Shown here one piece after another: positions 802-26,800 of a stretch of DNA of 35,430 bases. Numbering within the stretch: position 1 is the stretch's first letter; every line of letters starts with the position of its first letter. This DNA comes from Rhizaria sp. SCN 62-66 (Eukaryota). Location of the stretch: contig MEDY01000334.1 of assembly GCA_001724265.1 (NCBI GenBank), positions 1-35,430 on the forward strand, given 5' to 3'. The position numbers and the translations under genes are program-made. The notes below the pieces were generated by a model. It was given only the letters and a program-made list of their open reading frames with translations. It was not told where the DNA came from and ran no database searches.

Positions 802-3800
802 ATGCGAACAACGTCGCAGGCTCTGACGAGAGGCTTCGCCGTTTTGGTCGCTCTTTTGCTGGCGTGTGCCGGCACCGTACGTCTTACACAAATGTGATAC
901 TTTTGTTTCGAATTTCTGCGCTATTTATTTTCCCTTGATCTTGCCAGACCTCTTCTTCACGATCTCTTTCCCTTCGATCTGACCCTCCTTTTGCGCTGCT
1001 CCTCTTCCGACCTTGGCGACACGCCCAATTGGTGTCCATCTTCCCATTCACTTTATGGCTCCCTAGGCTCTTGGACATCTTGTCGTCTCTCCGACAGAGG
1101 TTTATGCGTCTGAGCTTGTTTCATACTCTTTCATCTTCACCTCTAACGTTACTGTTGGTGACGTCTACAAGCTGACCGCCGAGGACATCAATACTCAGCT
1201 CCTCTTCGTCGACCCTTCCCCGATCGAGGAGTCGTGCACTGCGAGTGGCGCCACGGTGTTCAAGAACCTCATTGGCCAATATGTGTCCTTCACCGTGACC
1301 AAGGCTGCGCCCAAGCTGACTTTCACCTGCTCCAACATTATCCTGCCTGCGACTTCGAATGGCAATATCGCGTTCAAGCTGACCAACACTGCCACCAACT
1401 CTGTTGTTGACTCTGTCCTTGTGGAGTTGAACCCCCCCGTCTCTTACCCGTTTAATATGATTACGTTTAGCACGCCGTACATCTCCGAGTCCATGAACAT
1501 GGATATGGTTATTGAGACCAGTGATGTCGTTGTTCACGCTGGCCAGTCGCTGGAGTTTGCCTTCAATTCAGTCGGTATCACCCACGACCCCGCGACGGCT
1601 CAGTGCACTTTCATCATCACCCCCTCGAATTCGCCGAACGACCTCAACAACGAGCTCTCGTCTTCTACCGTGGTTACTCCGACCACCGTTTTCACCGAGT
1701 CCCCCATCACCGGTCTCTCGATGAAGCTCACTGTGCCCGATGACATGACCATGCTCGGCCTCAACAAGATCATTCTTCGCTGTGTCGGCCTCCGCTCTCC
1801 TGCGTACACCCTCTCCGAGCACGATACGGCATCGCTTCGCGTCAATGCTCAGCTGGCGTACACCCGTATTTTTGTCCCTGCTTTCCAGGGCACGCGCCCT
1901 TCGGTGTCGGTGACTTACAAGGAGGAGGAATGGCAACACACTATCTTTAATGTCGTCCACACCGGTGTCGAGTATACCGGTCTGGAGCTTGACTCTGGTG
2001 TGTTCCCGTCTCACATTTCCGGATGTAATTTCGACAACCAGAATGGTGATACTGTGATTGAATGCCACAAGATTAGGTCTGAGCTCATGCACCGTGCCTT
2101 TATTGCTGCATCCACTGCCACCATTACCATCAAAGCAACTAGCGCTGCTAGCTCTACCCCTGAGCTTTTTAACGTTGTTCTCTACTTTCCTAAGCTTGAC
2201 TACCGTGCAGCGCAAGGCTCGCGTGTGACGGCGGACCGTAATGCGCGCACGCTGACCTTTGTTATGCCTTTTAAGTTGCTCACTTCATTTTATGTCCAAG
2301 ATACTTTCGCAGGTCTCATTAACGGTGGCTCTCAGTGCTCGATTGGCCACACCAACGTCCACGTCCATGTGCAAGTTGGCCCAGACCCAAACAAGCACAC
2401 CTTTAACATTCCCACGCACCTGCAGTTTGGTGCTGAGGATCAAACCACGGTCATCTGCCGTGACATCGTCTTCCCCATCTTTGCCGCCGCCCCGTCCAAG
2501 TCGGGTTTGTTGTCGTTTAACGACAAAGATTACTACTCGGTTCCTTTCTCTGGCTACCCTGCTGCGCCCCTCTCCGGCTCGCTCTCCCTCCGCGCGCCGT
2601 ACCCCGGCGTCCAGTCGGCGCTTGAGATCAAGCTTGAGGGTGCGTTCCCCGTCCACGCCCCGTTCAGTTCGATCACGGCCTTCGTGTCAGTGCCTGAGAC
2701 TGCGAGCAAGTTCCTCGCTGCCGGTGTCTCTGCGACTGGTGTCATGTGCAAGTACACTGCGCGCGATGGTTCTGAGGACACCAAGTCGTGCGGTGACCTC
2801 AATTACAACAGCGCTGCAGGCCAGGTCACTTTTGATCTGCTTGACATGCCCCCTCGCGTCGCCAAGGTTGAGGTCCTTGTGCCCTCCGTCACCACGGGTC
2901 CTTTCGTCTCGTACCTCGAGGCCATGCCCGCTGGCACGATCACCTTCAGCAATGATCTCCCTTCAGGCTCCGTCACTCTGCCCAAGCTCGTCGTCCCCAA
3001 GGAGATCCACGACTTCCGCTTCATCCGCGTTGGTCCTCTTGACTCCGACGACAAGCTTCGTCCTCTCACCTTCACGGCCCCGACAGAGTCTGCTGGAACT
3101 CAGAGTGGGTTCGAGCACGAGATGACGTTCTACACCCCCATTGGCCTGCCCGAGGGTGTCAAGATCGAGTTCTTCGATAATAGCACCCTCACTGGCGAGT
3201 ACATCATTGCCACTGGCGCTATCTGCGGTACTGACTCAGCGCCCGAAGACTGCGCTGTTCACGCTTCGAGTATTCTTACAGGCGATGCGCGCAAGCTTGT
3301 AATTACGCTCCCTAATATTATCTCTCTCGCTGCCAACTCCACCACCGATGTCAACATGCTCCTGCTGACGCCGCGTCGCGTCTCTCTCTTTGGCAACTCG
3401 TACCGTTTCCGCGTGTTTGATGAGAAGTACGTTTATGGCTCTGGTTTCTACAACCCTGGCCCTGTGTCCCAGTCCAACACTGGTCTTTATGTTGATATCC
3501 CGACCGGCACCACGACTGCCCAGACGATTGACTTTAACATCATCGTGCAGCTGGGCACTCCCTTCCCGGTCGCCAAGTCACAGGACATTCTCATCACGCT
3601 GACCCCGCGTCGCAAGCCGTACTTTGAGTTTGTCTCCCGTGATGTCACGTGCGCCTGGGATGGCTCTAACGCCGACTCTGTGCCGCTGACCTGGGCCGAT
3701 GACAACCGCAGCTTCACTGTGCGCTACAGCAACGAACACGTGAACCATACTACGACTCAGCGTGAGCACCTGGTTGCGCTTCTGAAGTGCACACAGGCGC

Positions 3801-5947
3801 GTTTCTACTCCATGTCCTATGCGGACAGTCCAGACTACAGTTACACTGGTCTTAACGCCACCGTTGCCTACTCGAACGGCTCTGTGATTAACTTTGGCCC
3901 TGTTCCTGTGACCCGTAATGTCATTTCGGCCACGCTTCCTAATCCCCGCATTACGCTCACCAACGCCGGCACGAACAACATCGGCGGATTTTCCTTCTCT
4001 GCTGGGAAGTGGGGTGATGCGACTGTGCTGCCGGCCAACTCAAAGGTCATTCTTTTGGTGACGATGTTCAATATTGATTCAACGTCGTGCACGTTTAACG
4101 GCGCTGCGATTGAGTCGGCTAACTTTGATTATTCATCTAGTGGCAGCTCTTTCTCTTTTACGAACGGTGCACGCCCTCTTGACATCTCACAGGGTTTCAC
4201 TCTTTTCTGCTCTAAGGTCCACTTTGACGAGCACACCAACACCAATATTGTACTCAGCATCAACCTCCCTGACGTTGACAACGCTGTCTACGCTGAAGTC
4301 GCCAAAGCGGTGGCTTCTCTTCCTTCCTACACCAACAATGATGTGCGCATCACTGTCGGCGCGTCGACCACTGCCACCGATGTCATGACTTGGACGTTTG
4401 AGAAGTTCACTCAGGTCTGGTTTGCTAATGGCACTAAGGCTACCATCAATCTTCTGCGTGACTCTGCCACGAAACTCTTCAACTACCGCCGCAAGGAGGG
4501 TCTTTTGTTAGCTAACTGCTACACCAATGAAGCTGGTACTGGCATCGTCGTCGCCACCTATGCTCCTCCCGCGCCTGGCGACAAAGATGTTCTTACGTTC
4601 ACCGTTAGCAACAAGTTCATCGCCACCGACAACGTGTTCGATGTGTCTCAGCCCTTCACCGTCTACTGCCAGGGCGTCATCACGCCCGAGGACCGCCACT
4701 TCCAAGAGTTCGCCAGCGGCTCTCTCAACGTTGAGTCAGAGAATTCATTCACGTTCTCGTTCTCCGACGATTCTTAGCCTCCTGGCACTCCGTTGACAAT
4801 GCCCAGTGTTGACGGTGACTCCAATGTCGAGTCCTACATGTCCCTGGCGGCCGTCAACGTCAACACGGATCTCGGCAGTCGCGTGCGCTCCATCATCCCC
4901 GCCAACATCACTGTGGGCTCTGATTTCGGTCTCCTCACCACCACGGTGTCCCCTGTGCCGCTGCGCATTCCTGCTGGCTCGTTCTTCCGCGTCGCACTCC
5001 CCATCTCCTGGGCTCTGGCCAACAAGCTCACGTGCTCTGCGTCCACGCTCTCCGCCTCGGCGTCGCGCGCGGAGATCGCCGTCAAGGTCGTTCAGTCCCC
5101 CTACGGTGACATCGCGTCCTTCGAGAAGGCCCGCTCTTGGGGTGCGGTTGAGGCGAACACTGACACCCGCTGGTTCGAGATCGTCTTCAACTCGGAAATC
5201 GCGCCCACGAATGACTCGCTGTACATCTTCTGCAATGGTGTCCGTGTCTCGGCCACGATCTCGGCCGGCGACGCGGCGTCGCTGGAGCGCTTCTCGTCGC
5301 TCCGTGTGTACGACAACAAGCACCGCCCTCTGATGCAGTCTGGCTGGGCTGTGTTTGCTCCTCTGACGAACGAGGCTTCCCCCATCACCAAGGTCACCCA
5401 GACTTTCGTCGTTTCCCGCGACACTGCCTTCACGGCCGATGAGATGGCCGAGGTCGAGGCTGCCATCGCCAAGGCGCTGCGCACCAAGGCCGCCCTCGTG
5501 CACATCATCCGTCAGACTGTCACTCTGTCCACCGACGCCGCGCGCACTCCTGAGCTTCAGGTCACGTACGCCGTCGACGCCGCGTCGGACGAGGCCATCA
5601 ACGACGTGCACCGCTCTGTCGAGCAGAGCTCCGCTGCCGTGTCCGCCGCCGTCGCCAGCAAGGCTGACACCCCTGTGCTGCGCGTTGCGGGCCTCGCGAT
5701 GAGCTCGTTCGCCGCCACGTGCTTCAACAGCGTCCAGGACGAGGGTGAGACTGGTACCGACTGCGGTGGTGTCTCGTGCCCCGCTTGTGCCGTCGGCTCG
5801 CCTTGCACTCTCAGCTCCGACTGCAGCAGCAACAACTGCGTTGTCGGCGTCTGCTCCAATCCCAACGCCGCTGCTGCGCCCGCCTCGGTCGCCGTCGCTG
5901 CGCTTTTCGCGGCCGTCGTCGCCGCCCTCGTCATGGTCGTTGCGTAA
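802..5947 (+). CDS. Large secreted or cell-surface protein with signal peptide, repeated beta-rich modules, a Cys-rich motif and a C-terminal GPI-type/hydrophobic anchor; contains one in-frame TAG at 4775-4777
   Basis: Exon 1 (802-876) reads MRTTSQALTRGFAVLVALLLACAGT. A phase-0 intron (877-1066, GTACGT...CCCTAG) leads to exon 2 at 1067 (ALG-HLVVSPTEVYASEL...), which is in frame with the 1256..4777 ORF. The 4793..5947 ORF is in the same frame and separated only by the TAG. The product is 1261 aa up to the TAG, or 1651 aa if the TAG is decoded. It ends NPNAAAAPASVAVAALFAAVVAALVMVVA-TAA and has many N-x-S/T sites. Confidence 0.75.
877..1066 (+). other. Spliceosomal intron (190 nt, phase 0)
   Basis: GTACGT donor, pyrimidine-rich body and CCCTAG acceptor. 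Removing it joins a signal peptide to the long ORF in frame. Confidence 0.8.
4775..4777 (+). other. Single in-frame TAG within an otherwise continuous reading frame
   Basis: The sequence reads GAC GAT TCT TAG CCT CCT GGC ACT CCG TTG ACA ATG, and ORFs 1256..4777 and 4793..5947 share the same frame. Confidence 0.9.
5717..5854 (+). other. Eight-Cys disulfide module (TCxNxxxDxxETxxDCGG type) just before the membrane anchor
   Basis: Translation TCFNSVQDEGETGTDCGGVSCPACAVGSPCTLSSDCSSNNCVVGVC. Confidence 0.7.
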
Positions 5948-7306
5948 GTAAGTAGTCAGTAAGTCACTTAGTTAAAACAAGTGAGCACAAGGTTAAAACA
6001 ACGATTGGGATCGTAAGTCAGTCATCATCAATGACTGTCTTGCATTTCTGGCGTCTGTTTTTTTTTTCTTGGCTTATACGTTGTTTTTTCGTTCTTGCTT
6101 TCTTATCTTGCTTGTGTTAACCACGAAGAGATGTTAAGTCACTTTTCTCTTCTTGAAGATCACACAACAGTTACTCTACTTTAAACGCAGTTGTAGTTGG
6201 TCCGCAGCAGTGTCTTAACATTCTTAGGAGCTTCGCTGTGATTCGACGTCTTCTTCTCACTCCTTTTGTGGACAATATGTATTTTTGTTGTTGTGTCTGT
6301 TGTTGAGTCTCATCATTGTATTCATTTGTTGGCAATCAAAGGCTCCTGCTCTTGCACAATTGCTGCTAATGCGTTGTTGATGTCTTTGTTGTGATGTTTC
6401 GCGCTCTGCTTTGTCACTTTCGCCGCACGACAGTGCGCGCAAGTGCCTCGGCCGCGCCTCACGCAACTCAGTTCATACCATACGACAACGTAGCAGCCGG
6501 TGTCAGTTTACCCTGCCAATGCGCACATTTAGTGCTTTGGTGAGCATGGGTTGAGACTCAACATCGCATCATAGCACACAAAGATCACAACAAACCAACA
6601 ATGAGGTTTTCTTAAGTTGAAGGTTAAGCAAGACGATAACGTTGTCGTTTTGTCATTGACGCAAGCCACCCTGCATAGCATAGCTTGAGTCCATCGCCTC
6701 CTGTTCTCGCTTTCTCCTACATACCTTACACCCGCACATTTGCCCACGCACAGTCAACGTAGCTGTGTGTGTGTGTCGCACTGTGTAGTGCAATGGACTG
6801 TGGTGTGAGCGGTCCAGGGGCGGTGTACTGTCGCCGCGTGCCCGCTTCGCTCGCTACAGACTCTCGGTCACTTTGTCACGGTGCCGTTTGTCGTGGACTG
6901 CGTCGGCGCGCGGCTGCATACTATATTCCCTTTCTCTATCGCTCTCAATTTTTTTTTCTCTTAGTCTCTTTCCCCTCCCCTCTTGGACCGCAACCGCTCT
7001 TCTCTCGCATCCCCGCGCTTGTGTCTCTTGGTGTGATAGTGCTTTCGAACTCTGGCGCTCTGCACCAGTGACTCGAGCCCTGCGGCTCAAATGTTTTTAT
7101 AACACCAAACCTAATGCATTTCATCCATGTCTCCGCGATGCTTGTATGTGCTAACACTGCGCAATCGCAGCACACAGTCATAGCTTTGTTGTTTTTTACT
7201 GCTGCTGCCATGCCCGTTATCGCGAGCTCGGCAGCAATCTTGGCAATAGCAACAACGGCTGTTAAAACGACGAACGATGACAATGACGTTCGCGTCCCTT
7301 GTCAGT

Positions 7307-7392: not shown

Positions 7393-8234
7393 CTTGACTT
7401 CGAAGGAAGTCTCGTCAATGCCGCCACCACAAGCAACGCGTGAACAATGACAACAGCAACGACCATCAATGTGCATGATAGAGAGAGGTATTGAGAGCAA
7501 TTGCTTGCGTGTATCACTCAACCGTTATCGAAAAGTGTATGTGCTTGTTCTTGTGTAAGCTCGTACGAGTGTTCGGAAATGTGTTGTTTGTTTGGGTTTG
7601 AAAGCCTCAGTCTAAGCTGTGGCAACGTAATACATATAACATTTAATCATACATGTAACGTTAACTGATACATATATGTTCGAACAACAGTTCGATACAA
7701 GTGATCCAATCTTGAGAAGTTGGGAAGTGTATTGTTGCTTGGTCATAGTAGCGCTGTACTCATATCATTCACACACGAAATGGGTTGATAGCGCAAGAAA
7801 AGATATCAAGCACTCACGGTTCGCGGCACAGTCTGCTCAGTCCATAACAGCACGTTATAGAACAGAACTTAAAACACAGACTCCAACAGGCGACGTGTAG
7901 TTGTTTAGAATAAAACGAAGAACAATGATGGACTATATAGCTGAAGTCAAGACGGAAGAACAAACAAAGAACCAAAAATATCGCATGCATGTGTTTTTAG
8001 GAAAAAATACGTACGTATCAACGAGTAGAGAAGACACCACAGTTACGGAAAATGACAGACAAAATGGGGAAAGACAAAAGGCATGCTGAAAGGTTAGATG
8101 GTTGTTATTGCAAAACAAAGAGTTAAAAAAAGATGTTGTGCAGATGTGAATCGTTGCATTATCGCTTGGTTCTCACATAATACATTCGATTAAAGCACTA
8201 CAAAAGAGCAAGTGTTTGAAGTGGAATGCACTGC

Positions 8235-8687
8235 TTAGGCTTGAGCATGCACCGGGGACGCCGGACAAGACGACACTGGCGAGTCATTCGGAGTGTCAGG
8301 GGGCACCTCAGCAAGAGTGGGCACAAACTGCAGCATCGAGGCCTGCATGCGAGCGCAGAAGAGCAGGGCTTGGTCGTCCTCAGGCACGGCGGCCGCAATT
8401 GCGGATGCGGGGGCGCCGCCGACCTACACGCGAGACAAGGGCGAGACAAATACAAACGAGAAAAGATATGAGTTGAAAAGTTTGAAACAATATGCCATAT
8501 AGTATAACAAGAGCTGATAGACAATAGAGCGTACCATGATGCGATTGGGCGCTTCGGTGTCGGTTGAGTTGAGGATTCTGTTCTGGTTGGCAGCAGCAGC
8601 GCTCATCTGGGCGACCGCGCAGGCGCGCAGGAGCGTATCATCGGATGCGCTGATGTGGTCGACATCGTCGAACGTAAGGCAAAACAT
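8235..8687 (-). CDS. Hypothetical protein, two exons (at least 113 aa); may be the 3' end of a longer gene
   Basis: Exon 8687-8535 (MFCLTFDDVDHISASDDTLLRACAVAQM...NRIM), then a phase-0 intron 8534-8424 (GTACGC...GTGTAG), then exon 8423-8235 (VGGAPASAIAAAVPEDDQALLFCARMQ...HAQA-TAA). The exons are GC-richer than their flanks. Confidence 0.5.
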
Positions 8688-9208
8688 CGCACAGTAGCTT
8701 TACAGTTCGCCAAAAGTTGCTCAAGACAGTGTTTGCGCTTGTAAGAGAAGAGTGAGGTAACCGCTTTGTGGCCACTTCAAAGAGCGATTCGTGAAGGGTG
8801 GATAGCACAAGGAGGACAATGAATTTTAGGTGAGCAATTTGAAATTCAAAATACATATTAAAATAAATATCCATAATGAGCAATAACAGAACAAATTGTC
8901 GACCGTGTGCAGAGGAATGCCTCATCCAATCGTTGCTCAATCACCCATTCAAGGAGGCATCTGAGGACGCGCACGCTGTCATCCACAAACCAGAGGAAGC
9001 TCTGTGAGCAGGGATAAACGAGTGTCAACCAACTTGGATCGAATAAAAATAAGTTGTGTATCAAATTAATATACTTTTTTTCACCACAACCACGAATATT
9101 TCATCAAAGACTAACGCGCAAGCGCTCGTCCCGACTCAGACACCGTTAATCGCCTTAACAACAAAAGCAGGCCAAGACAGACACTGTGTAAACAAAACGT
9201 ACGCTTGG

Positions 9209-10282
9209 TTACAGAGTGACAACGTCGCCGCGATTGTGGTCAACAAGACGCGGGTCCACACCGAGACGGCGCTGCAGAATGCGCGCAAACCGAGAAGGTC
9301 GGCGTCCGGAGCTACCACCAACACTAACATCAACACTAAGATTATCACGACCACCGACACGACTCTTACTCACTACATTACTACTCATATCTAGATCAAT
9401 ATCAATATAACTGTCGTTACCGCCACTCGCACTGACACCAAGGCCAACAGCGCCGCCAACACCCGCACCACTGACGCGAGCGGCAACGTCGTTGTTGTCG
9501 CTGTCGATGTTGTAGTTGGGATTCCGCTCGATACGGTGCTCTTGCGTCAACAACCACAGTGCCTCACGCTCACGCTCACGCTCACGCTGCTCACGGTCAC
9601 TCCTGCGCTCACGCAGGAAGGTAGGCCGCACGTAAGTGCTCTGAAGGTAAGCCGCGTGCCCGTGGCGCAGCTCGATCGCCAGCGCACGCCTCACCGCCCG
9701 CACCACCTCAACGGCAGCTGTGCTAGCATCCGTCCGTCGCCGTGGTGTTTCGACGCGGCGGCCACGGCCGCTTGGATCCGCAGCGGAGTCCGGAGAGTGC
9801 GGGCCGAGGGGGATGACCGCGGCCGCGGCGGCCCGCGCGGCGGCGCGCAGCACGCGCGCCGTCTGCGGTGTGACTGCACCGGCCGCGAGCGAAAGCGCGT
9901 GCGGGTCGTGCGTAACTGCGTACCAGAGCGGGCGCGCGACGGCCAACGAGTCGCCCCAGTTGTCGTCGTCGCCGTCGATCGCAGCGTCGCCAGTCACCAA
10001 ACCGCCACTGCCACCACCATCGCTGCCGTTGCTGATGCGGTTGCCGTTGCCGTTGCCGCTGCGGTAGGTGGAGGCGCGCAGGAGCGGGCTGAGGTCGTTG
10101 CCCGCCTGACCACGGCCGTTGTGCTTGGGGTCGAACCGCGGCGGTCGCGACTGTGAGAGCGAGTTTGACTGTGAGTTGTCAGAGTGAGATTTAAAGTCAG
10201 AGCCAGTGGCCTGGCCCTTGTTTTGTTGTTGCTGTTGCTGTTTTTGTTGTTTGTGCTCGTAACGACGCCGCCTCCGGTCGCC
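9209..10282 (-). CDS. 357-codon open frame directly continuing the HYOU1 frame past its TGA (candidate readthrough extension or alternative last exon)
   Basis: After GAG CTC TGA the frame reads GDRRRRRYEHKQQKQQQQQQNKGQ...GGSGGLVTGDAAIDGDDDNW...GDVVTL-TAA with no stop. It includes the 9209..10000 ORF. Codon usage and Ala/Gly/Gln low-complexity style match neighbouring genes. The first in-frame ATG is at 9388. Confidence 0.6.
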   Translation of the reverse strand, partial: GDRRRRRYEHKQQKQQQQQQNKGQATGSDFKSHSDNSQSNSLSQSRPPRFDPKHNGRGQAGNDLSPLLRASTYRSGNGNGNRISNGSDGGGSGGLVTGDAAIDGDDDNWGDSLAVARPLWYAVTHDPHALSLAAGAVTPQTARVLRAAARAAAAAVIPLGPHSPDSAADPSGRGRRVETPRRRTDASTAAVEVVRAVRRALAIELRHGHAAYLQSTYVRPTFLRERRSDREQREREREREALWLLTQEHRIERNPNYNIDSDNNDVAARVSGAGVGGAVGLGVSASGGNDSYIDIDLDMSSNVVSKSRVGGRDNLSVDVSVGGSSGRRPSRFARILQRRLGVDPRLVDHNRGDVVTL

Positions 10283-13060
10283 TCAGAGCTCGTCCTTGTT
10301 CTTGCTCTCGGCCTCAGCCTTGGTGGCCTCAGCCTCAGCAGCCTCGCCCTCCTTGGCCTCACCGGCGGCGGCGGCAGCGTCCTCAGGGGTGGCCTCGCCG
10401 TCGACAGGCGCGGTCTTAGCCTCGCCCTCCGCGCCCTCAGCGGCCTCGCCCTCCGCGGGCTCCGCGCCCTCGGCGTCGGTGGCATTGGCGTTGGTGGCGT
10501 TGGCGTCCTTGGCAGCCTTGGGCTCGGCGGGCTTCTTCTTCTTGTCGACGCGGGCCACGGCCGCGGTGACGGCCTTAGCACGGACGTGGATCTCGCTCAC
10601 CATCACCACGGGCGCCTCGTGCGGCTTGGCGGCGTCCTGCGCGACGGTGATCTCCTTGACCCAGGCCTCGAGCTCCTCGGCCAACGTGACCACGCCAGAC
10701 ACGTCGTCGGCGGGCAGCCACTGCTTGTGCAGCCCCCAGGACTGGGCCTTGACGCTCGCGGCGTCGGCCACGGCCAGTGCGGCGGCCACGGCGGCGGGGC
10801 GGTGCGCGGCCTCGTGCTTGCGCGTGCGGGCGTCGGTCACCACGGCCTTGAGCGTCGCAAGCTGCTTGTTGAGGTCCTCCACCGTCGCCGTCTCGCTGGC
10901 CTCGGAATCGAGCCACGCCTCGGTGGCGCGGGACGCCGCGAGCATGGCGTCGCGCTGCTCGGGGGTCGTCACAGCCACCATGTCGGCGTCGTCGGCCTCG
11001 TTGCGCACGCCGTACATGAGCGACTCGAGGTCGTTGCGCGCGGCGGCGAGCGCGCGGCGGGCGGCGTCGCGCGCGGTCAGCGAATCCAGGAACGCGCGCG
11101 CCGCCGTCTTAGTCTCGGCGTGCAACGGCACGAACACGGCCGAGTCGGCCGCAGGGAACAGCGGCGTGACCGTGAGCGGCACGCGGTGCGTCTTCTTCTG
11201 CTGGATGTACTCGACCTCGGCGCCCTCGGCGGCGGCGTCCTCCTTCTCGTCCTTCTTGTCGGCCTCAGCCTCGGCGGCGGCGGCGGCGTCGTCCTTCTTG
11301 TCATCGGCGGCCTCGGCGTCAGAGTCGGCGGCATCACCGTCCTTCTTGTCCTTCTTGGCGTCCTTCTTGGCCTTCTTGGCCTCCTTGGGCTTAGGCACCG
11401 AGACCATCTCCTCCAGCGTGGCCTCGGCGACGGCGAGCGACACAACGCCGGAGTCGGAGAGCACGAACGAGAGCGAGACGCGGGGCTTCTGCGTCTTGAC
11501 CAGCTCGGCGTAGGCCGGGTTGGCGGCCATGGCGGCGACGCCCGTGACCGAGTAGGCGCCCGCCTCGGGGGTGGAGCCTGCGGGCAGGAGCGCGGCGTCG
11601 GTGGCCAGCGCGATGTGCAGGTCCTCCGAGTGCGACAGCGCAATGGTCTTCTTCTTGCCCAGCAGGTTGTTGCGGCCGAAGATGGCCACGGTCTTCTTGA
11701 ACTCGGACACGGCCGAGTCAGCGGCGAGGTCCGTAATCGAGACGTTGACGGGGAAGGGCGAAACATCAGCGACGCCGAACGGACGAACCTGGAAGAGGCC
11801 GGAGACGTTGGCGGCGCGGAACACTGCGCCCATGGCCATGGCCTCGTCGCCGTTGATGTTCTGGTCGAGCTTGTCCTTCTTGACGACGGACTTGATGGCG
11901 GCCTGCACAGCGGGCACGCGGACGGAGCCGCCGATGATGACGACGGCGTCGAGCTGCGCGTCCGTCACGCCCGCCTCGGCCATGGCGGCCGCGATGGGGC
12001 CCGGCACGCGCGCGAGCAGCGGCGCCGCGAGCTCGACGAACTGCGTACGCGTGAAGGTCGTGAAGAGGTCCATGTCCTTGAACACAGACTCGATTTTGAC
12101 GGGGATGTCGTTGTTCGCGGAGAGCACAGTCTTGACGGTGTTGGCCTGCTTGAGCAGCTTGGCCATAGCGCGCGGGTTCTCGGCCACGCCCTTGACCTTG
12201 TCGCCGTTCTTGGCGACAAACTGGCGCAGCAGCTCGTCGCGGATCATGCGGTCAAACGCGGCGCCGCCCAGCGTCGCGTCCCACGCGGAAGCCTTGACCA
12301 GCGCCTGGCCGACGTACTTGGCGGAGCGGCCCGAGCCCTGCTTGCGGCCAGAGTACTCGACCACGGTCGCCTCCATGCCCGCCGAGCCCATGTCGACGAA
12401 GAGGGCTGTGTGGGTCGTGTTGTCGTAGATGCGGTCGACGCCGTAGGTGATGGCCGAGGCGGTGTTGTCATTGATGAGGGCCATGACGTTGACGCCCGCG
12501 AGGTCGGCGGCGTCGAGCACGGCCTGGCGCTCCTTGTGCGCGAACCAAGCCGGGATGGTGATGACGGCGTCCTTCATGTCGATGCCAGAGTCGTCCTTGG
12601 CAATCTTGCGGATGTGCTGCAGCGACATCGCGACCAGCTCCTCGGGGGACAGCACGGTGTCAGACTTGGGCATCTTGATGCCCACGGACGCGCCGCGGCC
12701 GGGGATAGAGACGAAGTTGTAGCCGAACATGCTCTGCAGCTCGGCGACCTGGGGCGAGTCGATCGTCTTGCCCAGCAGGCGGTGAGACCACAGGTACGTG
12801 TCCAGTGGCTTGCGGATGGCGAAACCGACGGCGTTGTTGCCGAAATGACGCTCACCGTCGTCAAAGGCCACGGCGAGGGGAACCTTGCGCTTGGCCTGCT
12901 CATCGACGACGATGTGGAAAGGGTTCTTAGGACGGACCGAGGCGACCTTGATGAACTCGGCACTCAGGTCAATGCCGAGCACGGAAGCCGCGGCCGGGGT
13001 GGCGAGAAACGCCACCAGGGCAGAGAAAAGGGCCAGGATGACAACCGGTTTGAGTGCCAT
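10283..13060 (-). CDS. HYOU1: ER-lumenal Hsp70-family chaperone and nucleotide exchange factor GRP170 (HYOU1/Lhs1), 925 aa
   Basis: The ATG at 13060 gives the signal peptide MALKPVVILALFSALVAFLATPAAA. Motifs include VLGIDLSAEFIKVA, DAVITIPAWF, LINDNTASAITYG, FVDMGS, WDATLGG, IIGGSVRVPAVQ, INGDEAMAMGA and ARNDLES, plus an acidic loop and a C-terminal KDEL. The ORF track's extra 85 N-terminal codons are probably UTR or intron. Confidence 0.95.
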   Translation of the reverse strand: MALKPVVILALFSALVAFLATPAAASVLGIDLSAEFIKVASVRPKNPFHIVVDEQAKRKVPLAVAFDDGERHFGNNAVGFAIRKPLDTYLWSHRLLGKTIDSPQVAELQSMFGYNFVSIPGRGASVGIKMPKSDTVLSPEELVAMSLQHIRKIAKDDSGIDMKDAVITIPAWFAHKERQAVLDAADLAGVNVMALINDNTASAITYGVDRIYDNTTHTALFVDMGSAGMEATVVEYSGRKQGSGRSAKYVGQALVKASAWDATLGGAAFDRMIRDELLRQFVAKNGDKVKGVAENPRAMAKLLKQANTVKTVLSANNDIPVKIESVFKDMDLFTTFTRTQFVELAAPLLARVPGPIAAAMAEAGVTDAQLDAVVIIGGSVRVPAVQAAIKSVVKKDKLDQNINGDEAMAMGAVFRAANVSGLFQVRPFGVADVSPFPVNVSITDLAADSAVSEFKKTVAIFGRNNLLGKKKTIALSHSEDLHIALATDAALLPAGSTPEAGAYSVTGVAAMAANPAYAELVKTQKPRVSLSFVLSDSGVVSLAVAEATLEEMVSVPKPKEAKKAKKDAKKDKKDGDAADSDAEAADDKKDDAAAAAEAEADKKDEKEDAAAEGAEVEYIQQKKTHRVPLTVTPLFPAADSAVFVPLHAETKTAARAFLDSLTARDAARRALAAARNDLESLMYGVRNEADDADMVAVTTPEQRDAMLAASRATEAWLDSEASETATVEDLNKQLATLKAVVTDARTRKHEAAHRPAAVAAALAVADAASVKAQSWGLHKQWLPADDVSGVVTLAEELEAWVKEITVAQDAAKPHEAPVVMVSEIHVRAKAVTAAVARVDKKKKPAEPKAAKDANATNANATDAEGAEPAEGEAAEGAEGEAKTAPVDGEATPEDAAAAAGEAKEGEAAEAEATKAEAESKNKDEL

Positions 13061-13948
13061 CAGGGAACTACACAAGTTAAAGTGCGCGGTAAAGCAAAGA
13101 AACGGTGCGGATGTGAGGACTACACGAACAGGGAGGTGGAAATAAAGTGGAGCACTTGGACGGAAGATATGGCACGAAACTAGCAAACCGTGGGAAGAAA
13201 AAATGGTGATTGTAGAATTAACCTGCAAAGGAACTTCGGAGACGCTATTCAGAAACCGCTCACGAACTCCCCGCACCCACTCGAGATTGATGACGTCAGG
13301 TTCTCGATTCGACACCTTCCAGAGCCTTGGCCACCAGTGACCGTGGGCAGACGAGTTAGGCCGCCCACGGTCACCCTACCTGCAAAGCAGAGCCCAGCCG
13401 TTTCAAAATGAGATCAAGGAAATCTCCTTAGTTTCACGCGTGAAGAGTCCGCCTAGCTCAGTGATTTATGCATATTCATAATAGAAAGTATGTCAAAGAC
13501 ATTTTCTATAATTTTGGTGCGCTGATGTCGTGATTATTCGCGCGATCTAGCCACCAAATCGCAACCTCGACTTGCCACTCTCGCGCCTCCCCGCCTCCCC
13601 TTCGTTTCGCATGCTTGCTGCCTCCCCATGCCACTTTCTTTGCATGCTACATCGTTCTCTCGTTTTGCGACACCGCCTGCCATCCACATCGCTGTTCTGT
13701 GTCGCCTTAAATCACGCTCCTCTGCGCGAAAACACTCCTTCACACAACAACGCCGACACAGCCTCACAACGCTCCTGCAACCACCCCCGCTTCCCCTTCA
13801 CTTGCACTCTCTCACACCCTCGTGCACGCGCCAAAACAACTGAACCTACCATACACTTTTCCTTTTACTTGGGCACACTCATTGTCGCTCGTGCACATTT
13901 CAAAACTGAACCAAAACAACCTGGATCGCTCCCTTGCAGACCCGTCTT
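13061..13948. promoter_or_regulatory. Divergent (head-to-head) promoter region between HYOU1 and the small zinc-finger gene
   Basis: Gene orientation. It contains TGACGTCA at 13291-13298 and the 12-bp palindrome TTCACGCGTGAA at 13433-13444. Pyrimidine tract plus AG acceptors lie shortly before both ATGs. Confidence 0.5.
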
Positions 13949-15849: not shown

Positions 15850-17574
15850 TTAGACGGCCTTGGTGATCTTCTGGATGCCGAAAGAGCAGAGCGAGCCCAT
15901 GAGGATGCCCGACACGAGCGACATGGACATGACGCCGCCGGCGGCGCCGCGCTCGTGCGCGGCCACGCGCGAGGGCGCGAACATCATGACGAGGGAGGAC
16001 ACGTAGCCGTTGCTGAGGGAGAAGACGGCGCCGAAGGCGAGGACCCACCAGGATGAGGCGTCGAAGATAGTCGAATGCACCGAGAGGAAGAAAAGAGGGT
16101 ACAACAGGAAGCGGAGGTAGACGCCCAGCCAAACCGTATCGACGGAGAAGAGAACGACGTAGGCGGGCAGCGAGCGGCCGAGGAGGTCGAAGCCGTTGAA
16201 GAGGCACACCATGATGAGCGCGAACCAACCCTACAGTGACACAAAAAGGCAAGAACGCAGAAGAGAAACATCAAAGTTAGAAATGACAGCATGAATAAAA
16301 TGGTTGGGAAAAATACAATGAAAAATAGATACAATACATGTAACTAAACGAAAATGGTGTCATGTCAAGTCAGTTCATATTTGCGTTGTTGCAACGTACC
16401 TGCGACATGTCGAAGGAAGTGGTGGGCGAGGTCATGAGGCCGGGGAAGACGAGGAAAGTCATCAGGAACACGCAGATGATGTGGCAAGGGAAGAAGCCGA
16501 GCTTCTTGAGCACAGACTTCATCTCCACGGGCTCCTGCGCGCCGGCGCCGGCGTCGCTGTCGCTGCCGCTCTCGAGGTGGGCCAAGTTGCCGCCCGCGGC
16601 GAAGGTGCCCTCGGCGGCGACGGCCGAAGTGGAGTGGACCAGGTGCGCGCTCGGGGCGGCCGAGTCGAGCAGCGCGCCGTGCAGCAGCGCGTCGTCGCTG
16701 ATGGCGAGCTCGTCCTTGCCGGCCGCGGCGAGGTGGAAGCGCGCGAAGGGCGTCGCGCGCTTCCACAGAAAGACGAAGATGCAGAACGTGGTGAAGAGCG
16801 CCGAGAGCGAGAAGTACACGATCGCGCCGTTGCGGTAGCCGGCCGAGTCGTCAGGAAACGAGGCCTTGGTGATGACGCGCGCGAGCGAGACGGCGACGCC
16901 GGACCAGCCCTGGCCGGCCATGACGGCCTGCATGAACTGGGGCGGGAAGATGGCGGCGAGCGAGAAGATCGTCGACTGCACCACGGCGGACCAGAAGCCG
17001 ATGAGGAGCATGAAGATGACGGCGAGAATAAAAGAAACGGAGTCGTTGGAGACGAGGATGGGGCAGAGTGGGAGGAGAACGACGAGGATGGTGTTGCAGA
17101 TGAATGGCAGGACCAAGGTCTGGATCAGCGTGAGCTTGCCCCCGAGACGAATCATCGCCATCTGCACGAACGGGGTGCAGAGGGACGACGCGAGGGGCGC
17201 CCAGAAGATAAGATCCTTGCCGGGCCACGTCTCCTCGTAGTAGTCCGCCGCGGTCATCATGGTGTTGTAAGGGAAAAGCGTGCCGGCGCCGAGAATGATC
17301 ATGGCGAGGTAGATGAGCCCGCTCTTGTCCTCGGGAGGCTCGGAAGCGTTCAAGGCAGCACCACCAGCATGCTAAAGCACGCGTAGACGGTAGAACATAG
17401 TGAAATCAGTGGGGTTCAGAAGAGGCAAAAAGAAAGTTGTGAGAATAAAAATCGCACAGGCGGCGGGAAAGTAAGGTGCGAGGGTGGAAGCGCAAGAGGG
17501 CGCGGAGGACGAACCTGAGCCTTGTTGACAGACATATTCTCGTCAAGCAGTAACGCGGTTTTGTTGCTACTCAT
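15850..17574 (-). CDS. Equilibrative nucleoside transporter (ENT/SLC29 family), about 470 aa
   Basis: Exons 17574-17515, 17371-16400 and 16230-15850, with introns GTTCGT...TTTAG and GTACGT...TGTAG, both phase 0. ENT motifs: LGAGTLFPYN, QAVMAGQGWSG, TFLVFPG, FNGFDLLGR and FSLSNGY. It has multiple hydrophobic helices and a central loop. Confidence 0.93.
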
Positions 17575-18574: not shown

Positions 18575-21500
18575 ATGTTAAACTCCATCACGTCCCTCTT
18601 GGGACTAAGCGACTCGAACAAGTCCCGAAACAACAACAACAATAGAGACAACAACAACAGCGCCAACAATAACACCAACACCAGCCGCAACGCCGGCTAC
18701 ACCTCGTCCTCGGAGCACCACGCCGGCGGCGGTAACGGCAGTGCGCTGTACTACCACCAACAGCACAGCCTCACGATGCCGCCCGTGACGACGCGCAACC
18801 GCGGCGCGTCGGTGCCGTCCCGCGGACCCAGCCCAGGCCCGCCCGCAACCGGCTCAGGCGCGACGTTCGGCGCTGGGTACGGCAACAACCCTTACACGCC
18901 CCATAACTACAACAACGCCAACACTGGCGCTGGCGCTGGCACTGGTGCTGCGAGCAGCAATATCCCGATGGGCGGCCAGCGCGGCAGCCCCGCCGTCTCG
19001 GCGCTGCCATCGGGCTCGACCTCGTTCCTCCCCAACAGCCCCCCCGCGGCGGGCGGCGGCAGCTACAACTCGGCCGCGCACAAGGCCGATACGGCGCACA
19101 ACCTGCGCGTCGCGCTGGCGGGGTCCTACCCCCTGCAGCCGCAGCGTGCCCAGCACACGGGCTTCCTCCACACGCCCGCCGCGCAGCTCAGCCCCAACGC
19201 CAACGACGACTACGACGAGTTCGCCGACGACCGCGACCCCACCGCGCGCTACCGCAGCGCCGCCTACGGCAACAACGGCGCCGGCGCCAGTGCCGGCGGC
19301 GTGAGCATGGGGGGCCGTCAGGACGGCGGCGGCGCCAGCGCCGGCGCGGGGCTGAGCTCGCTCATGCATCCAATCACGGCCGTCAAGAACAGGATCTTCA
19401 GCAGCAGCGTCACCACCAACGCCATCGCGCCCGCCGGCGGCGCCGCGGCGAGTGTCACGTTCCCCGGCGACGACGACATGCACTTCTACGCCGACGACCG
19501 CGAGTTGGCGTGTACGTACACCGGGCTCTCGGAGCAGGACACAGTCTCGCGGCTGCTGCAGGCCGGCGTTGCCGTGGCCGACTCGATCACGCTTGCGCGC
19601 ATCGCCAACGCGCTGCGCCGCCGCCCGCAGGCGCTGCTCGCCGTCGCCAACGAGTTCGGCGTCCGCGCGGCCTCCGTCGAGGACATCTACAGTAGCAACA
19701 GCGCTGCCAGCGCGCAGGCGCAGGAGAAGCCCGTGAGCCGGCGCTCAACCCCGGCGCTGCTGCCCCCCTCGGCCTCCCCCGCGCTCCCCGACGGCGGCAG
19801 CGCCAGCGCCACCGCCGCGCCCGACGCTGCTGCGGCCGCGGCAGTCGAGAGCGCTGACAAAGAGGCCAGCCCCGCCGCCGCCGCCGCTCCGGTCACTGCG
19901 GCACCGGTGTCCGTGGCGGCTGCGACGGCGTCCCGGTTTACGACGGCGACGGCGGGCATGCCGCCGACCAAGATCGCGACGGCTGCGCTGCTCGAGATGG
20001 CCCGCGCGCGCGCGCCGACCGTGTTCGCGCCCTGCTCCGTGCCGCTGCCGCTCGCGCTCTACGGCGCCGCCGCGGGCGTTGGCTGCGGCAGCAGCGACGC
20101 CGCGGCGGCGATTGCGGCCGAGATCGCGTCCGCGACTGACGCCGCCACGGCTGCCGTTGCCAACGCTACTGCTGCCGCGGATGACAGCAAGGCCGACAAC
20201 GCCAACGATGGCGAGTCCAACTCGCTCACCTCGCCCGCCGTCGGCTTCTTCTACCCCGGCTTGACTTTCGTCCCTGCGGACCCCGACCCGGCCTCGGCCT
20301 CGGCCGCGGCTCTGCTGGCCGGCAGCGCGGCTACGGTCGCTGCCTCGGCCGCGGCCGCCTCGGCCTCGGCCGCCGTGCTCGCAGTGCGGGCCACGGGCGC
20401 CGCCGGGCTGCTGCAGCGCGCCGCGGCGACGGCCGTGACCGCGCCGGCAACTGCGGCGGCCGCGGCGGCGTCGCCCAGGGGCGCGCTGTCGGCGGCCGCG
20501 GCGGCCGACTTCGCGCTCATGGCCGTCGCCACGGCCGACGCCGACGCGGACCTGTCGGCCTACGTCACGACCGTGAGCGCCGCCAAGAGCCCAGCCACCG
20601 CCGCCGCCGCCGCGGGCGCTGGCGCTGCGAACGGGGTCGCGCCCGCGGGGCTGGTGTTCTACACGAACCGACCGTTCGAGAGCGCGGCGCGCGCGTGGAC
20701 CCGCTGCGACCGCTGCAGGGACCTGGACGACGACAATGATGACGACGACGACGGCAGTGAGGCGGACGGCGGCGCCGACGACGCCAAGTGCGCGTGCGCA
20801 CCGCTGCCGTCGGCGCTCTCGCCCATGGTCACCGTGACCACGAGCACGGGCACCACGACCACCGTCAGCGCCAATGGAACCGGGACTGGGAGCGCAAAGG
20901 GTAAGCACGTCGCCGGCCCACGCAACGCCGCCGCCGCCGCCGCCGCCGCCTCCGCTGCCGCGGCCGCGGCCGCCGCGGCCCGTGACGGCAATGGCACCGG
21001 CTACGGTAACGCCAGCGGCAACGGCGTGCGTCGCAACAACGCGTGCTCAATGTCATCGACCGCGGCGCTGGTGACGCCGGTGCAGCCCGTGACGGTGTCG
21101 CCCGCAGCGGCCGCCGCAGCCGTGTCGGCGGCCGCGACGGCGGTGCTGAGCGCGGCGGGCGCACACGCGGGCAGTGCGGTGCTGCACCTGCGCGGCGGCT
21201 TCCCCTACCTGCCGTCGCATTACCCGCTTTTCACCGAGATGGCGCACTCGGCGCACCTTGTGCACGGCGGCAACGCGGCGCGCATGCGCGTCGACGTGCT
21301 GCGCACGCTGCAACGCGGCAGCAAGCTGATCCGCATCGGCTTCGCGTGCTCCGCGCTCTCGCTCATGCGCGTGTCGAGGGACCTCAAGTACCTCTACTGG
21401 CCCTGCCCACGCGCCACGCGCCCGCCCGCGGGGCCGCTGCCCAAGGCTTCCCCCGCGGCCGCGGCCGCCGCGCTGGCGGCCGCGCTTGCCGAGGCCGGGC

Positions 21501-23801: not shown

Positions 23802-26800
23802 TTACCACGCGAGTGCGCGTGCAACCCTCTCGGCGCGCGCTCCCTCGCTCCAACCAGCAATCTGCGCCACCGCAGCGTCCCTCCCAGCGCCAGCGCCGAC
23901 GCTGCCAGCAGTCACGCCGCTTTCGGCCGCGCTGTCGCTGTTAACGTCCGCGCTAGCCGCGAGGGCCCAGGCAGGCGGCAGTAGGCCGGGGCTGTTGGCC
24001 GCCGCCGCAGCAGCAGCAGCCGCAGCAGCAGCCGCAGCAGCAGCCGCCGCGCCCGCGCGCCCCGACTGCGGCCGCGTGACGCCGCCGGCCCTGCCGCCCT
24101 CGCCGGCGCCGACGCCGGCACTGGGAGGCGCGATGGCAGGGTACGACGCAGGCGCGAGCGCGGGCGCAGCGCTGGCTTGGCCCACTGAATGGCCGTGGCC
24201 ATGCGAGTACATCGCGGGCGCGGCAGGCAGCACGGCGGCGGTGGCCGCGGGCAGAGACACGCGCACGGGCGCAACGGAGCCCTGCACAGCGGCCAGCGTC
24301 GCTAACGAGTGCGCTGCCAACGGCGACGACGCCGGGAGGCCCCAGGCCACCGCGCCGCCGCTGCTGTTGTTGACGGAGCCGAGCTTCGAAGCAGTGCGCA
24401 GCTGCACTGCGGCACTGTTGCTGTTGTTCAGTGCAGCGGTGGCGGCAGGCGTGGGCACAGGCGCCACGAGCGCGGCCTGCCAGCCCCAGGCCAGTCCGGA
24501 CACGCCTTCGGCGCCCACGGCGGCGCCCACGGGCCACGCGCGCAGACCGCCTCCGACGGCAGCGCCGCTCGCGTCGGGCAGAACGAAATCGGCCACGGTG
24601 GCGGCGCGCGCAGAGGCCGCGATGGCGGCGAGCGCGGCGGGCGACGGCGCGGCGGCTGCAGCGGCGGCAGCGGCGGCAGCTGCAGCGGCAGCGGCGGCGG
24701 AGGACGAGGAGGACGTGCGCTGTGCGCCTGCCGCGGGTGTGGGGGGCGGCGCGGGCGCAGCGGCAGCAACAGCTGCAGCGGCGGCGGCCGAGGCTGCGGC
24801 AGCGACGGCGGCCGGTAACGGCGCAACCGCGCCCGCAGCAGCCGCAGCGGCCGCCACGGCAGCGGTCTCCGGAGTCGCGGAAACACCGAAGGCCCCCACC
24901 GCTGCCGCGGGCACGTACGCCGTCACCAGCGCCGGCTGCTGCTGCACGTTTGCACTCGCAACAGCGGGCTTGTTGCTGCCGACAGCGCTTCCGTAGCTGG
25001 GCGTATACGCGGGGATGAGGTACGTGAGCGACGGCACGAGCGCGGACGAGGCCCAGGGAAATGTGACCGTGGGCGCGATCGCGGCGGCACCGACACCGGC
25101 AGCAGCATCGGACTGGAAGAGCCCGGCCGCGGCCGCCAGAGAAGGCGCCGGCACGCGCACAGTGCTCGCGGCCACCACAGCAGCCTCCTCGGCGCTGAGC
25201 GTGACTGCGCCCGTCGCGCCGCCAGCGTACGCGTTCGAGCTCTTGCCGCGAGAGCGTGCGAGCGCGGCAAGAGCCGCAGCGTCAGCGTCAGGATCACTAG
25301 ACTCGATGATGAGCGCGTAATCCTCAACATCAGTGCTCGTGCGAAGGAAGCAACGCAGGTCACCACTGCCCACATCAGCGCCGACAAGCTCAGCCAGGGA
25401 CTCGCCGCTCACAGCGGACTGGGCTGAAGCCGAGCCGCGCGCGGTGGAAGTGAGGCCGCGCCGGGCCGTCGCGTTGGCAGTGGCGCGCAACGCCACCGAA
25501 GTGGTTTTGGAGCTGGCGCTGGAGCGGCCAGAGGACGAGGCGGCGGCGGAGAGCGCGGGCGCAAAGGCAGCGCGGAGCAGGGGCGCGAGCGCCGGCGCGC
25601 ACCACAGCCTGTCGCGCACGGGGACGGCCCAGCCCGAGAGCCAGCGATGCGGCGGCTGCGGCACGGGCGAGGCGCCCGCGAGCACCGCGGCCAGGTTCAG
25701 CGACAGAGGCAGCGCATGCGACACGACAGTCAAGCCCGCGGGCGCCGCGCTCGCGATCGCACTGGTCGTGGCGGACAGGGAGGTGGCGGAGCCGGCGGCC
25801 GTGGAGCCGCGCTTGCCGCTGGGGCCAGCAGAGACAGAAGCAGCAGCGCCGGCGGCGGAGCCAGCAGCACCAGCGGTTACACTGCCACGTCCGCGGCCAG
25901 TGCCGGCAGCAGCAGCCGTCGCGGCCGCAGCAGCCGCAGCCGCAGCGGCCGCGCTGACCGCCACCGCCGCCGCAGCCTCCGCCGCGGCCGCGGCCTCGGT
26001 GACGACGGGCGGCGGCGGCGCGTAGGCCGCGAGCGCGAGCGCCTCGGGGTCGTGCCAGAGCAGCAGCGCCTGCAGCGAGTCCGCGCTGCGCTCGCCGCCC
26101 GCGGCTGAGTAGTGCCAGTGCGCCCACGCGGCGCCGGCGGGCGCGGCGCGCAGCGCGGGCGGGGCCGGGTCGGGCAGCACAGCCGCGGGCGGCGAGAGCA
26201 CCACCGTCTTGCCCGCTGCCGCGCTGGGCAGCGACACGGCCGGTTCGGGGCGCGCGCTCGCGGCGGCGACAACGGCGGAGCGTGGGAGCGCGGGCGCGGC
26301 GAGCCACGCAAAGCCATCGGTCTCCGCGAAAGCGAAGGCCGGGGACGCCTCGGTGACCGGCGAGGCCCAGGCGAAGGGTTGCGGCGGCAGCGTGGTGCCC
26401 GCGGCGAGGGACGAGGCCAGCACGGCGGCGGTGGCGCAGCGGGCCGCGGCGGGGAGCGACTGGCCGAGCGCGAGCAGCGACGCCGTGGCCAGCGACGGCA
26501 GCGGCGCGGGCGCGAAGAGCGCGAGCGGAAGCGCGACGTCGCCGTAGACGGCACTGCTGCTCGCGCTGGAGTTGCTCAGCGAAGAGGCGGAGGCGGAGGC
26601 GGCCAGCGCGCGGTGGCGCGGCGCGCTCGCGGTGCTGGCGAGCGCGGCGGGCGCAAGCGGCGACGACAGCTGCAACGGCGACGAGAGCTGCGTCGGTGAA
26701 GACTGCGGGGGCTGCGGCACCGGGGTGCGGACGACCTTGCCGCCCAAGGTCACCACTGTCATCATCTTGACTGGCGCCGCAGCCCCGCTGCCACTGTTGC

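Follow-up and report, generated by a model that had tools for sequence, protein, structure and literature searches.

Does a gene for the endoplasmic reticulum (ER) chaperone GRP170/HYOU1 end at the TGA behind its KDEL signal when the same reading frame then stays open for about another kilobase? This question is raised by contig MEDY01000334.1 of Rhizaria sp. SCN 62-66 (assembly GCA_001724265.1), of which we analyzed positions 1 to 35,430 (hereafter, the window). The source organism is an uncultured protist, and the contig is eukaryotic and comes from a bioreactor or wastewater metagenome; its GC content in the window is 0.64–0.77 in coding regions versus 0.44–0.50 in spacers. A sequence-only reading of this DNA had proposed that HYOU1 carries a hidden in-frame extension, reached by stop-codon readthrough or, alternatively, by splicing. 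We find that the open, coding-like tail behind the KDEL-TGA is real, and that this layout, with a long coding-like tail in frame behind KDEL-TGA, is conserved in a related locus. The 1.07 kb past the stop is best explained as a protein-coding tail of the GRP170/HYOU1 gene rather than as an ordinary 3′ untranslated region (UTR). That TGA readthrough makes a minor, KDEL-masked HYOU1 isoform is the reading we favor, although we put it slightly short of an even chance.

An open, coding-like frame behind the KDEL-TGA of GRP170/HYOU1

GRP170/HYOU1/Lhs1 is a large HSP70-like nucleotide-exchange factor of BiP. Its coding sequence (CDS) lies on the minus strand of the window (10286..13060) and encodes 925 aa with an N-terminal hydrophobic leader and the C-terminus ...KNKDEL. 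The HSP70-type region that defines this large HSP70 of the ER was found by Pfam at residues 27–622 (E=1.7e-84). Among 510 homologues, those with names are called 'hypoxia up-regulated 1', and the best named matches share 29–34% identity across 80–99% of the query. The signal peptide and KDEL-type retrieval signal of the family are both present: the leader (MALKPVVILALFSALVAFLATPAAAS) is hydrophobic, with its top 19-residue hydropathy window at residue 6 (from hydropathy only, not a dedicated signal-peptide predictor), and the C-terminal region is acidic and of low complexity before it closes with KDEL. At this very position, the five closest relatives end in KDEL, KDEL, KSEL, REEL, and KDEL. 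The TGA (10283..10285, minus strand) stands right behind KDEL, and the next base is G. The same TGA is found in L001, an independent assembly with the same sequence as the window (100% identity), and a DNA-run contig spanning 10083–10311, TGA included, has 0 differences to the window. We also noted a palindrome, TGACGTCA (13291–13298), which is a cAMP response element (CRE)/bZIP-type site ahead of HYOU1, ~235 nt from its start codon, and might be a stress-response element.

Past the TGA, the HYOU1 frame is open for 357 codons (10282–9212, minus strand) and is closed by a TAA at 9209..9211. The 1071 nt of open frame described in the sequence-only reading were confirmed, together with its in-frame polyQ, GNGNGN, and (ER)n tracts and its single in-frame Met, 59 codons before the tail end. 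A fully open stretch was obtained in 2 of 20000 dinucleotide-preserving shuffles, in which the median first stop fell at codon 30. The five other frames of the tail contain 4–25 stops each (0/7/25 for the three frames of the same strand). Since about 250,000 windows were scanned in total, a single event with a chance of 1 in 10,000 carries no significance of its own, and the weight rests on a replicate in a related locus (L002, described below). A post-stop frame open far beyond chance, a mark of programmed readthrough, was found in both the window and L002.

The tail is also coding-like in codon structure. Codon-position periodicity in the HYOU1 frame was strong over the whole tail (chi2=93.7, p=5e-18), with p=0.04–0.07 in three flanking controls. 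It was likewise strong in the tail body, the 313 codons at 9212..10150 (minus strand; chi2=99.8, p=3e-19), where the frequency of A at third codon positions (A3) was 0–0.07 in most bins; the protein encoded there is basic and largely low-confidence or disordered. Under a codon model trained on neighbouring genes, the tail frame was the best of six in both the window and L002; in the window it scored −0.04 bits/codon, compared with +0.64 for HYOU1 and −0.8 to −1.5 for intergenic controls, and the L002 tail scored about the same as the end of the L002 HYOU1. A gene on the opposite strand at 9209–10282 was rejected, as the plus frame contains 4 stops and lacks both a Met and a plus-strand GTACGT, the hexamer that starts the clear introns of the window (see below). 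The codon-model score of the opposite-strand frame was slightly worse overall and better within 9240–9480.

The sequence following the two stops differs in another respect. As the sequence-only reading had pointed out, no AT-rich 3′ UTR lies behind the TGA: its flank is not T/GT-rich within 200 nt. The flanks of five other ends in the window become T/GT-rich within ~12–110 nt, namely those of g2, TLD, CFAP65, and ENT (genes described below) and of the tail's own TAA. By eye, the T/GT-rich stretch past this TAA (TTTTGTTT, CTTTTGTTGTT; 9150..9200, minus strand) resembles those found 45–110 nt past the stops of other genes. If such stretches are 3′-end signals, as they may be, the signal comes after the tail's TAA and not after the TGA. 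The remark that other TGA-ending genes soon reach another stop also held for the TLD gene, the sole other confident case, which has a TAA after 8 codons.

The same layout at a second HYOU1 locus

Scanning of metagenome contigs with a HYOU1 alignment yielded at least 28 loci. Among the matches listed, L002 was the only relative with downstream DNA at useful closeness; two closer protein relatives, P0002 (69% identical) and P0004 (56%), were not among the loci compared, and closer relatives sought in genome-contig and viral-contig collections were not found there. The HYOU1 orthologue of L002 is 47% identical to the window protein and likewise ends in KDEL-TGA. Its tail comprises 287 open in-frame codons followed by TGA-TAG, and 0 of 20000 shuffles were as open, at 51% GC; the same-strand frames contain 0/7/29 stops. 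Periodicity in the HYOU1 frame was again detected (chi2 41, p=3e-7), with p=0.2–0.9 in three flanking controls. A further locus, L003, is identical to L002 across 1901 aligned columns, and the two count as one replicate. Frame conservation in relatives, which the sequence-only reading had named as a check, thus turned out in its favor, with KDEL-TGA plus 287 open codons in L002.

Independent HYOU1 C-termini with flanks were available from six loci. The two closest, the window and L002, have a TGA and a long tail. The distant homologues L004, L005, L006, and L013 have a TAA stop, with the next in-frame stop after 15, 0, 3, and 20 codons, respectively. A stop and open frame kept in orthologues, as in readthrough genes, was therefore found in L002 and was absent in 4/4 more distant homologues. 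Besides HYOU1 and the tail, there is no synteny between the window and L002, indicating that the tail travels with HYOU1. Elsewhere in L002, the spacing of head-to-tail genes is 1.3–1.9 kb.

These data bear on the view that the tail is untranslated, either a long 3′ UTR or a decaying coding relic, and owes its openness to chance and to a GC-rich, T-poor composition with triplet microsatellites. So many gene ends were scanned that a 1e-4 event is expected somewhere, and open reading frames (ORFs) of hundreds of codons on the antisense strand or off frame are common in the GC-rich window. The tail also contains 3n-periodic microsatellites (CAA/CAG, GGCAAC, CGTGAG, and GTN runs), which however make up a small part of the 1071 nt. 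Its near-random amino-acid composition, lack of homologues, and low recognition by a language model (all detailed below) would likewise suit a relic. By contrast, a test set beforehand in the near relative L002 succeeded at 51% GC, where shadow ORFs are rare, and the periodicity reached p=5e-18 and 3e-7 in the two tails while the controls were flat. Moreover, among 39 ORFs of at least 300 codons, drawn from the window and 12 loci, the open stretch behind the stop had a median of 16 codons. Long stretches were found behind the HYOU1 genes of the window and of L002 and in the g1/g2 pair; the others were a shadow ORF antisense to a GC-rich gene and, in L018, an intron that is in frame. We regard an untranslated tail as very unlikely.

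Shadow ORFs were observed in the window itself. One of 1002 codons runs antisense over HYOU1 (10175–13183, plus strand), and others lie over two GC-rich genes at 18.5–30.4 kb; where this genome is GC-rich, the length of an ORF is by itself a poor guide.

Possible routes from the chaperone into the tail

Readthrough of the TGA is favored because only a direct reading explains an in-frame tail together with stop-free spacers of 34–44 codons in both loci. In the window, the spacer is the head of the tail, 44 codons at 10151..10282 (minus strand; GDRRRRRYEHK, polyQ, S/N-rich) with a composition unlike the rest, which is stop-free in the window and in 18–23% of shuffles; in L002, it is a stretch of 34 codons with a stop-free chance of 0.08. 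Multiplying these chances (0.18–0.23 and 0.08) by a frame coincidence of 1/3 per locus gives a joint chance of ~0.002 under the other models. TGA is also generally the leakiest stop, and all four distant homologues use TAA. We tentatively infer that the tail is translated in the following way. Most ribosomes would terminate at the TGA, and their product would be the usual chaperone, held in the ER by its terminal KDEL. The remainder, a minority, would decode the TGA via a near-cognate tRNA, by programmed or tolerated readthrough, and continue for 357 codons; at ~1283 aa, this product would end in a tail that is basic, rich in Arg, and disordered over most of its length. Soluble chaperones are, in the textbook view, kept in the ER by KDEL retrieval. 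The signal functions only when it is C-terminal, and the long isoform would therefore escape retrieval by the KDEL receptor. Of the readthrough proposal, what gained support is the L002 layout and the in-frame periodicity of both tails; against this, the head of the tail looks non-coding, and the two loci share no RNA structure.

Several observations weigh against readthrough, beginning with the stop itself. The contexts are TGA-GGC in the window and TGA-AGT in L002, and to our knowledge neither TGA-G nor TGA-A is among the known leaky contexts (UGA-C, UGA-CUAG), a list drawn from other organisms that need not apply to this one; the earlier remark that TGA-G is not the classic leaky context thus extends to L002. 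Nor was a stimulatory 3′ structure found that both loci share. A hairpin is predicted in the window with the TGA in its 5′ arm (10255..10289, minus strand), and the 126-nt stretch folds with a minimum free energy of −33.8 kcal/mol (z=−2.69; 2 of 200 shuffles were as stable). The corresponding L002 stretch has z=0.09. The hairpin is therefore not conserved, and the window and L002 have neither a common post-stop RNA structure nor detectable post-stop sequence conservation.

The part of the tail adjoining the stop is a further difficulty. The first 44 codons in the window have an A3 of ~0.30, use CAA and AAA codons, and look non-coding; under the tail body's own periodic model they score −11.7 bits, like the downstream controls. 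In L002, the 34 codons ahead of an in-frame ATG at codon 35 (ATG35) do not outscore the controls (−1.8 bits); the periodic signal is strongest from that ATG on (+8.7 bits). The host-like codon usage claimed for the tail held only in part: its A3 of 0.08 is host-like, but its GC content at third codon positions (GC3) is 0.66, far below the 0.92 of HYOU1. The GC3 of four other genes is 0.82–0.91, and that of g1 is 0.67. A candidate intron just past the tail's TAA, described below, also hints at a more complex gene structure.

Nor do the encoded tails have recognizable relatives. No relative was found for the window and L002 tails in a word index of 5.8 billion proteins, or for the window tail in an exhaustive phmmer search of 1.84 billion representative proteins; for both tails, Pfam returned no family and the Atlas search no relative. 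Alignment of the window tail with the L002 tail detected no similarity (best E=2.0), so the two may not be homologous. The amino-acid composition of the window tail is near that calculated for random DNA of equal base composition, and its recognition by a language model is low. The two tails are alike in being basic (isoelectric points of 10.5 in the window and 10.0 in L002), with 13% Arg each and no transmembrane segment. Low order or disorder is predicted for each: AlphaFold2, run on the single sequence of the window tail, gave a mean predicted local distance difference test score (pLDDT) of 45 and a predicted template modeling score of 0.18, and the Atlas model of the L002 tail has a pLDDT of 0.42.

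Public RNA data were also inspected. Parts of the stretch are contained in 16 of 18 public runs, and four were examined as low-depth Logan contigs: X5, a poly(A) metatranscriptome, and X4, X6, and X7. X5 has exact pieces inside the tail (9204–9423 and 9517–9798) as well as CDS pieces. Transcription of the tail is not established by these pieces, because DNA can sit in RNA libraries and X5 also carries pieces of flanking DNA (6213–6403 and 13642–13876). No RNA contig bridging the TGA was seen in the low-depth contigs, a further point to be set against readthrough. The X5 cover is continuous between gaps at 8670–9203 and 13209–13475; one contig end at 9204 lies beside a GTACGT at 9202 and was not counted as evidence. 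Separately, an X5 contig within the HYOU1 CDS (10569–10986) shows 26 differences in 418 bases, suggesting that a strain or species ~94% identical co-occurs with the organism, and further variant pieces were seen in X4.

The periodic signal at ATG35 of L002 brings forward another explanation, that the tail is a separate coding unit with its own start (an orphan gene under rapid evolution, or a second ORF further down the HYOU1 mRNA) and lies in the HYOU1 frame by chance. ATG35 has A at −3 and G at +4, gene callers predict stand-alone proteins in both tails (P0121, 262 aa; P0122, 253 aa), and the head of the window tail looks non-coding. The window tail, however, is without an in-frame ATG for 298 codons. 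In no frame is there an ATG for ~260 nt past the window TGA, and the first one opens an ORF of 8 codons; in L002, out-of-frame ATGs at 8424 and 8436 lie upstream of ATG35. The spacers of 102–130 nt are too short for a 3′ end plus a promoter, given the 1.3–1.9 kb of other L002 spacers, and no T/GT-rich 3′-flank element follows the window TGA. A separate unit would also have to accompany HYOU1 in two loci that share no further synteny, with the frame coincidence and stop-free spacers left to the joint chance of ~0.002. A start of its own for the tail is thus unlikely, if still a serious contender.

Splicing was the alternative put forward in the sequence-only reading, and the introns of the window provide a standard for it. 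Five clear introns (14419, 16399 on the minus strand, 31605, 31920, and 34262) all start with GTACGT, are AT-rich, and are 161–245 nt long. GTACGT occurs 26 times in the window versus 11.2 expected, a count that 0 of 100 shuffles reached, and for a protist with few introns such a strict 5′ splice site is unusual. The intron of the equilibrative nucleoside transporter (ENT) gene (15853–17302, minus strand) is 169 nt long (16399–16231, CAG/GTACGT...TGTAG/G) and was confirmed by continuity of the Pfam Nucleoside_tran match, which covers positions 4–167 in exon 1 and 185–307 in exon 2.

The proposed event would join a weak phase-0 donor in the last 105 HYOU1 codons to an acceptor in the tail head, thereby removing KDEL-TGA; its product would be the chaperone without its last ~100 residues and KDEL, plus ~313–319 tail residues. 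As described earlier, the candidate donor ATG/GTGAGC (10595..10600, minus strand) is in phase 0, and phase-0 CAG acceptors ending at 10169 and 10151 stand behind CTGAC. These acceptors belong to two acceptor-like CTCACAG heptamers (10175–10169 and 10157–10151, minus strand), and a second weak phase-0 donor, CAC/GTCCGT (10585–10580, minus strand), lies 15 nt beyond GTGAGC. The acceptors look plausible. In favor of splicing, the organism does have introns, both donors preserve the frame with both acceptors, the coding-like signal of the tail starts just past them, near 10150, and the same heptamer ends a candidate intron at 9002–9008. CTCACAG occurs 5 times in the window versus 4.6 expected, with 3 of the 5 on the minus strand within 9002–10175.

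The donors fare worse. Neither GTGAGC nor its neighbor resembles the GTACGT of 5/5 clear introns, and no exact GTACGT occurs in the last 300 HYOU1 codons. The proposed intron, of 417–435 nt, is GC-rich and encodes residues conserved in relatives, and our reading of the L002 sequence showed no donor of the GT[AG]AG type where the homologous codons lie. In the contigs examined, whose cover is very thin, none of the joints fitted 10600/10169, 10600/10151, or 9203/9001; the joints that were listed had a shorter side of 20–38 letters and all lay in low-complexity repeats. Splicing would also leave the in-frame tail in both loci and the stop-free spacer unexplained (joint chance ~0.002). Taken together, these findings weaken the splice alternative, which we consider distinctly unlikely.

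The candidate intron behind the tail does have the typical donor. It is AT-rich and 201 nt long (9002..9202, minus strand), with GTACGT at 9202–9197, 6 nt past the tail's TAA, and the CTCACAG end at 9008–9002. Because 201 is a multiple of three, its removal would let the tail's frame go on for 47 open codons (9001–8861, SFLWFVDDSVRVLRCLLEW...). An ORF is listed there at 8858..9100 (minus strand). The codons at 9001–8861 gave a weak Ipi1_N match (E=0.17), and the small ORFs past the candidate intron matched at E=0.05–0.17, which is Pfam noise. On sequence grounds, this may be a 3′-UTR intron, part of another gene, or a chance occurrence.

Finally, the TGA could be decoded by rule, as selenocysteine or as a sense codon reassigned in this lineage. 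It would fit such a rule that definitive ends after a TGA are always TAA or TAG: the TLD gene has a TAA 8 codons past its TGA, a 692-aa gene of L002 has a TAA 18 codons past, and the L002 tail ends in TGA-TAG. Codon counts speak otherwise: six window genes have 59 TGG and no in-frame TGA over 6496 codons, and four L002 ORFs (GC3 ~0.5) have 35 TGG and again no TGA over 3207 codons. The five closest homologues also terminate at this position with KDEL-type signals. Rfam found no selenocysteine insertion sequence (SECIS) and no other family, either at the gathering score over the whole window or at E up to 5 in window 8000–10700 and L002 8000–10500. No tRNA genes were found in the window or L002. 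With SECIS absent and 0 in-frame TGA, the selenoprotein and sense-codon readings were rejected, and decoding by rule keeps next to no probability.

Neighbouring genes and known readthrough systems

Other genes of the window include one for a TLDc-domain protein of 1596 aa (TLD; 18575–23365, plus strand), one for a CFAP65/HYDIN-type flagellar protein of 2187 aa (CFAP65; 23802–30365, minus strand), and an RTE1-like gene (34304–35050, plus strand; E=4.5e-37). The CFAP65/HYDIN-type gene suggests that the organism is likely flagellated.

A second open frame behind a stop lies near the start of the window. An ORF of 1106 aa (g1; 1236 codons stop to stop) runs from 1457 on the plus strand to a TAG at 4775–4777, past which the frame is open for 389 codons (g2) to a TAA at 5945–5947 and closes with a stretch rich in Cys and a hydrophobic C-terminus. 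The sequence stays coding-like right over the TAG, and there is no GTACGT nearby. The g1 and g2 parts showed no significant mutual similarity and no Pfam family. Readthrough could account for the pair, as could two separate genes with 21 nt between them, a pseudogene, or a nonsense allele.

A broader reading would take both loci together, with stop-codon readthrough as a regular switch of C-terminal sorting signals in secretory-pathway proteins of this lineage. In it, the ~300-residue basic disordered tail of GRP170 would bury KDEL and would have been kept since the split of the window and L002 (47% identity), and a surface protein (1457–4777) would gain a Cys-rich hydrophobic anchor (4778–5944) only via TAG readthrough. 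We judge this combination, with both its parts, improbable.

The known systems that come closest are insect genes with the order ORF1-UGA-ORF2, kelch among them. According to the part of the report available to us, Drosophila kelch has an ORF1-UGA-ORF2 arrangement and yields a C-terminally extended protein by stop-codon redefinition (10.1101/2020.06.22.165522), and Drosophila readthrough extensions have been reported, in a source likewise available in part, as disordered and poorly conserved between orthologues (PMC4999894). As in these insect genes, so far as those accounts describe them, a UGA here precedes a long in-frame second ORF (357 and 287 codons) with low predicted order and no sequence conservation. 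Unlike here, where readthrough is proposed from sequence and no structure is shared, the available account of kelch shows readthrough by immunoblot and reporters and implicates a 3′ stem-loop. The present case also differs in concerning an uncultured protist and an ER-lumenal chaperone whose KDEL would be masked.

Readthrough that changes sorting is familiar from other compartments. Fungal glycolytic enzymes have readthrough-made targeting isoforms, and peroxisomal readthrough extensions are short and add a peroxisomal targeting signal 1 (PTS1) behind a leaky UGA-CUA. For mammalian LDHB and MDH1, the available part of the source describes readthrough that alters the C-terminal sorting signal and hence localisation, to the peroxisome (PMC4359377). 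A C-terminal sorting signal would change here as well; unlike in the peroxisomal isoforms, the tail is long, has no recognised signal, would bury KDEL, and follows TGA-G or TGA-A. Among GRP170/HYOU1 relatives, none of the 120 homologues listed exceeds 1055 aa, so a tail of ~300 aa is annotated in none of them, a comparison limited by gene callers, which never read through stops anyway. HAC1/XBP1 mRNAs offer a different precedent, since IRE1-type unconventional splicing replaces the C-terminus of these ER-stress mRNAs, which carry a hidden C-terminal ORF behind the first stop. An alternative C-terminal ORF hidden behind the first stop is the feature in common, which we considered only as a lead; unlike in HAC1/XBP1, no paired stem-loops with a conserved loop motif were seen, the sole hairpin is unshared, and the protein is a chaperone and not a bZIP factor.

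A literature search for readthrough behind a KDEL signal, judged by titles and the starts of abstracts, found no description of it. In the part available to us, an Arabidopsis survey that sought ER-retention signals in readthrough extensions reports none (PMC9293766). If the readthrough reading is true, a core chaperone would have its KDEL hidden by a switch acting in translation, which would also provide a new route to a secreted or post-ER GRP170. Readthrough with long extensions, best known in insects, would then occur as well in a protist lineage that only metagenomes have revealed.

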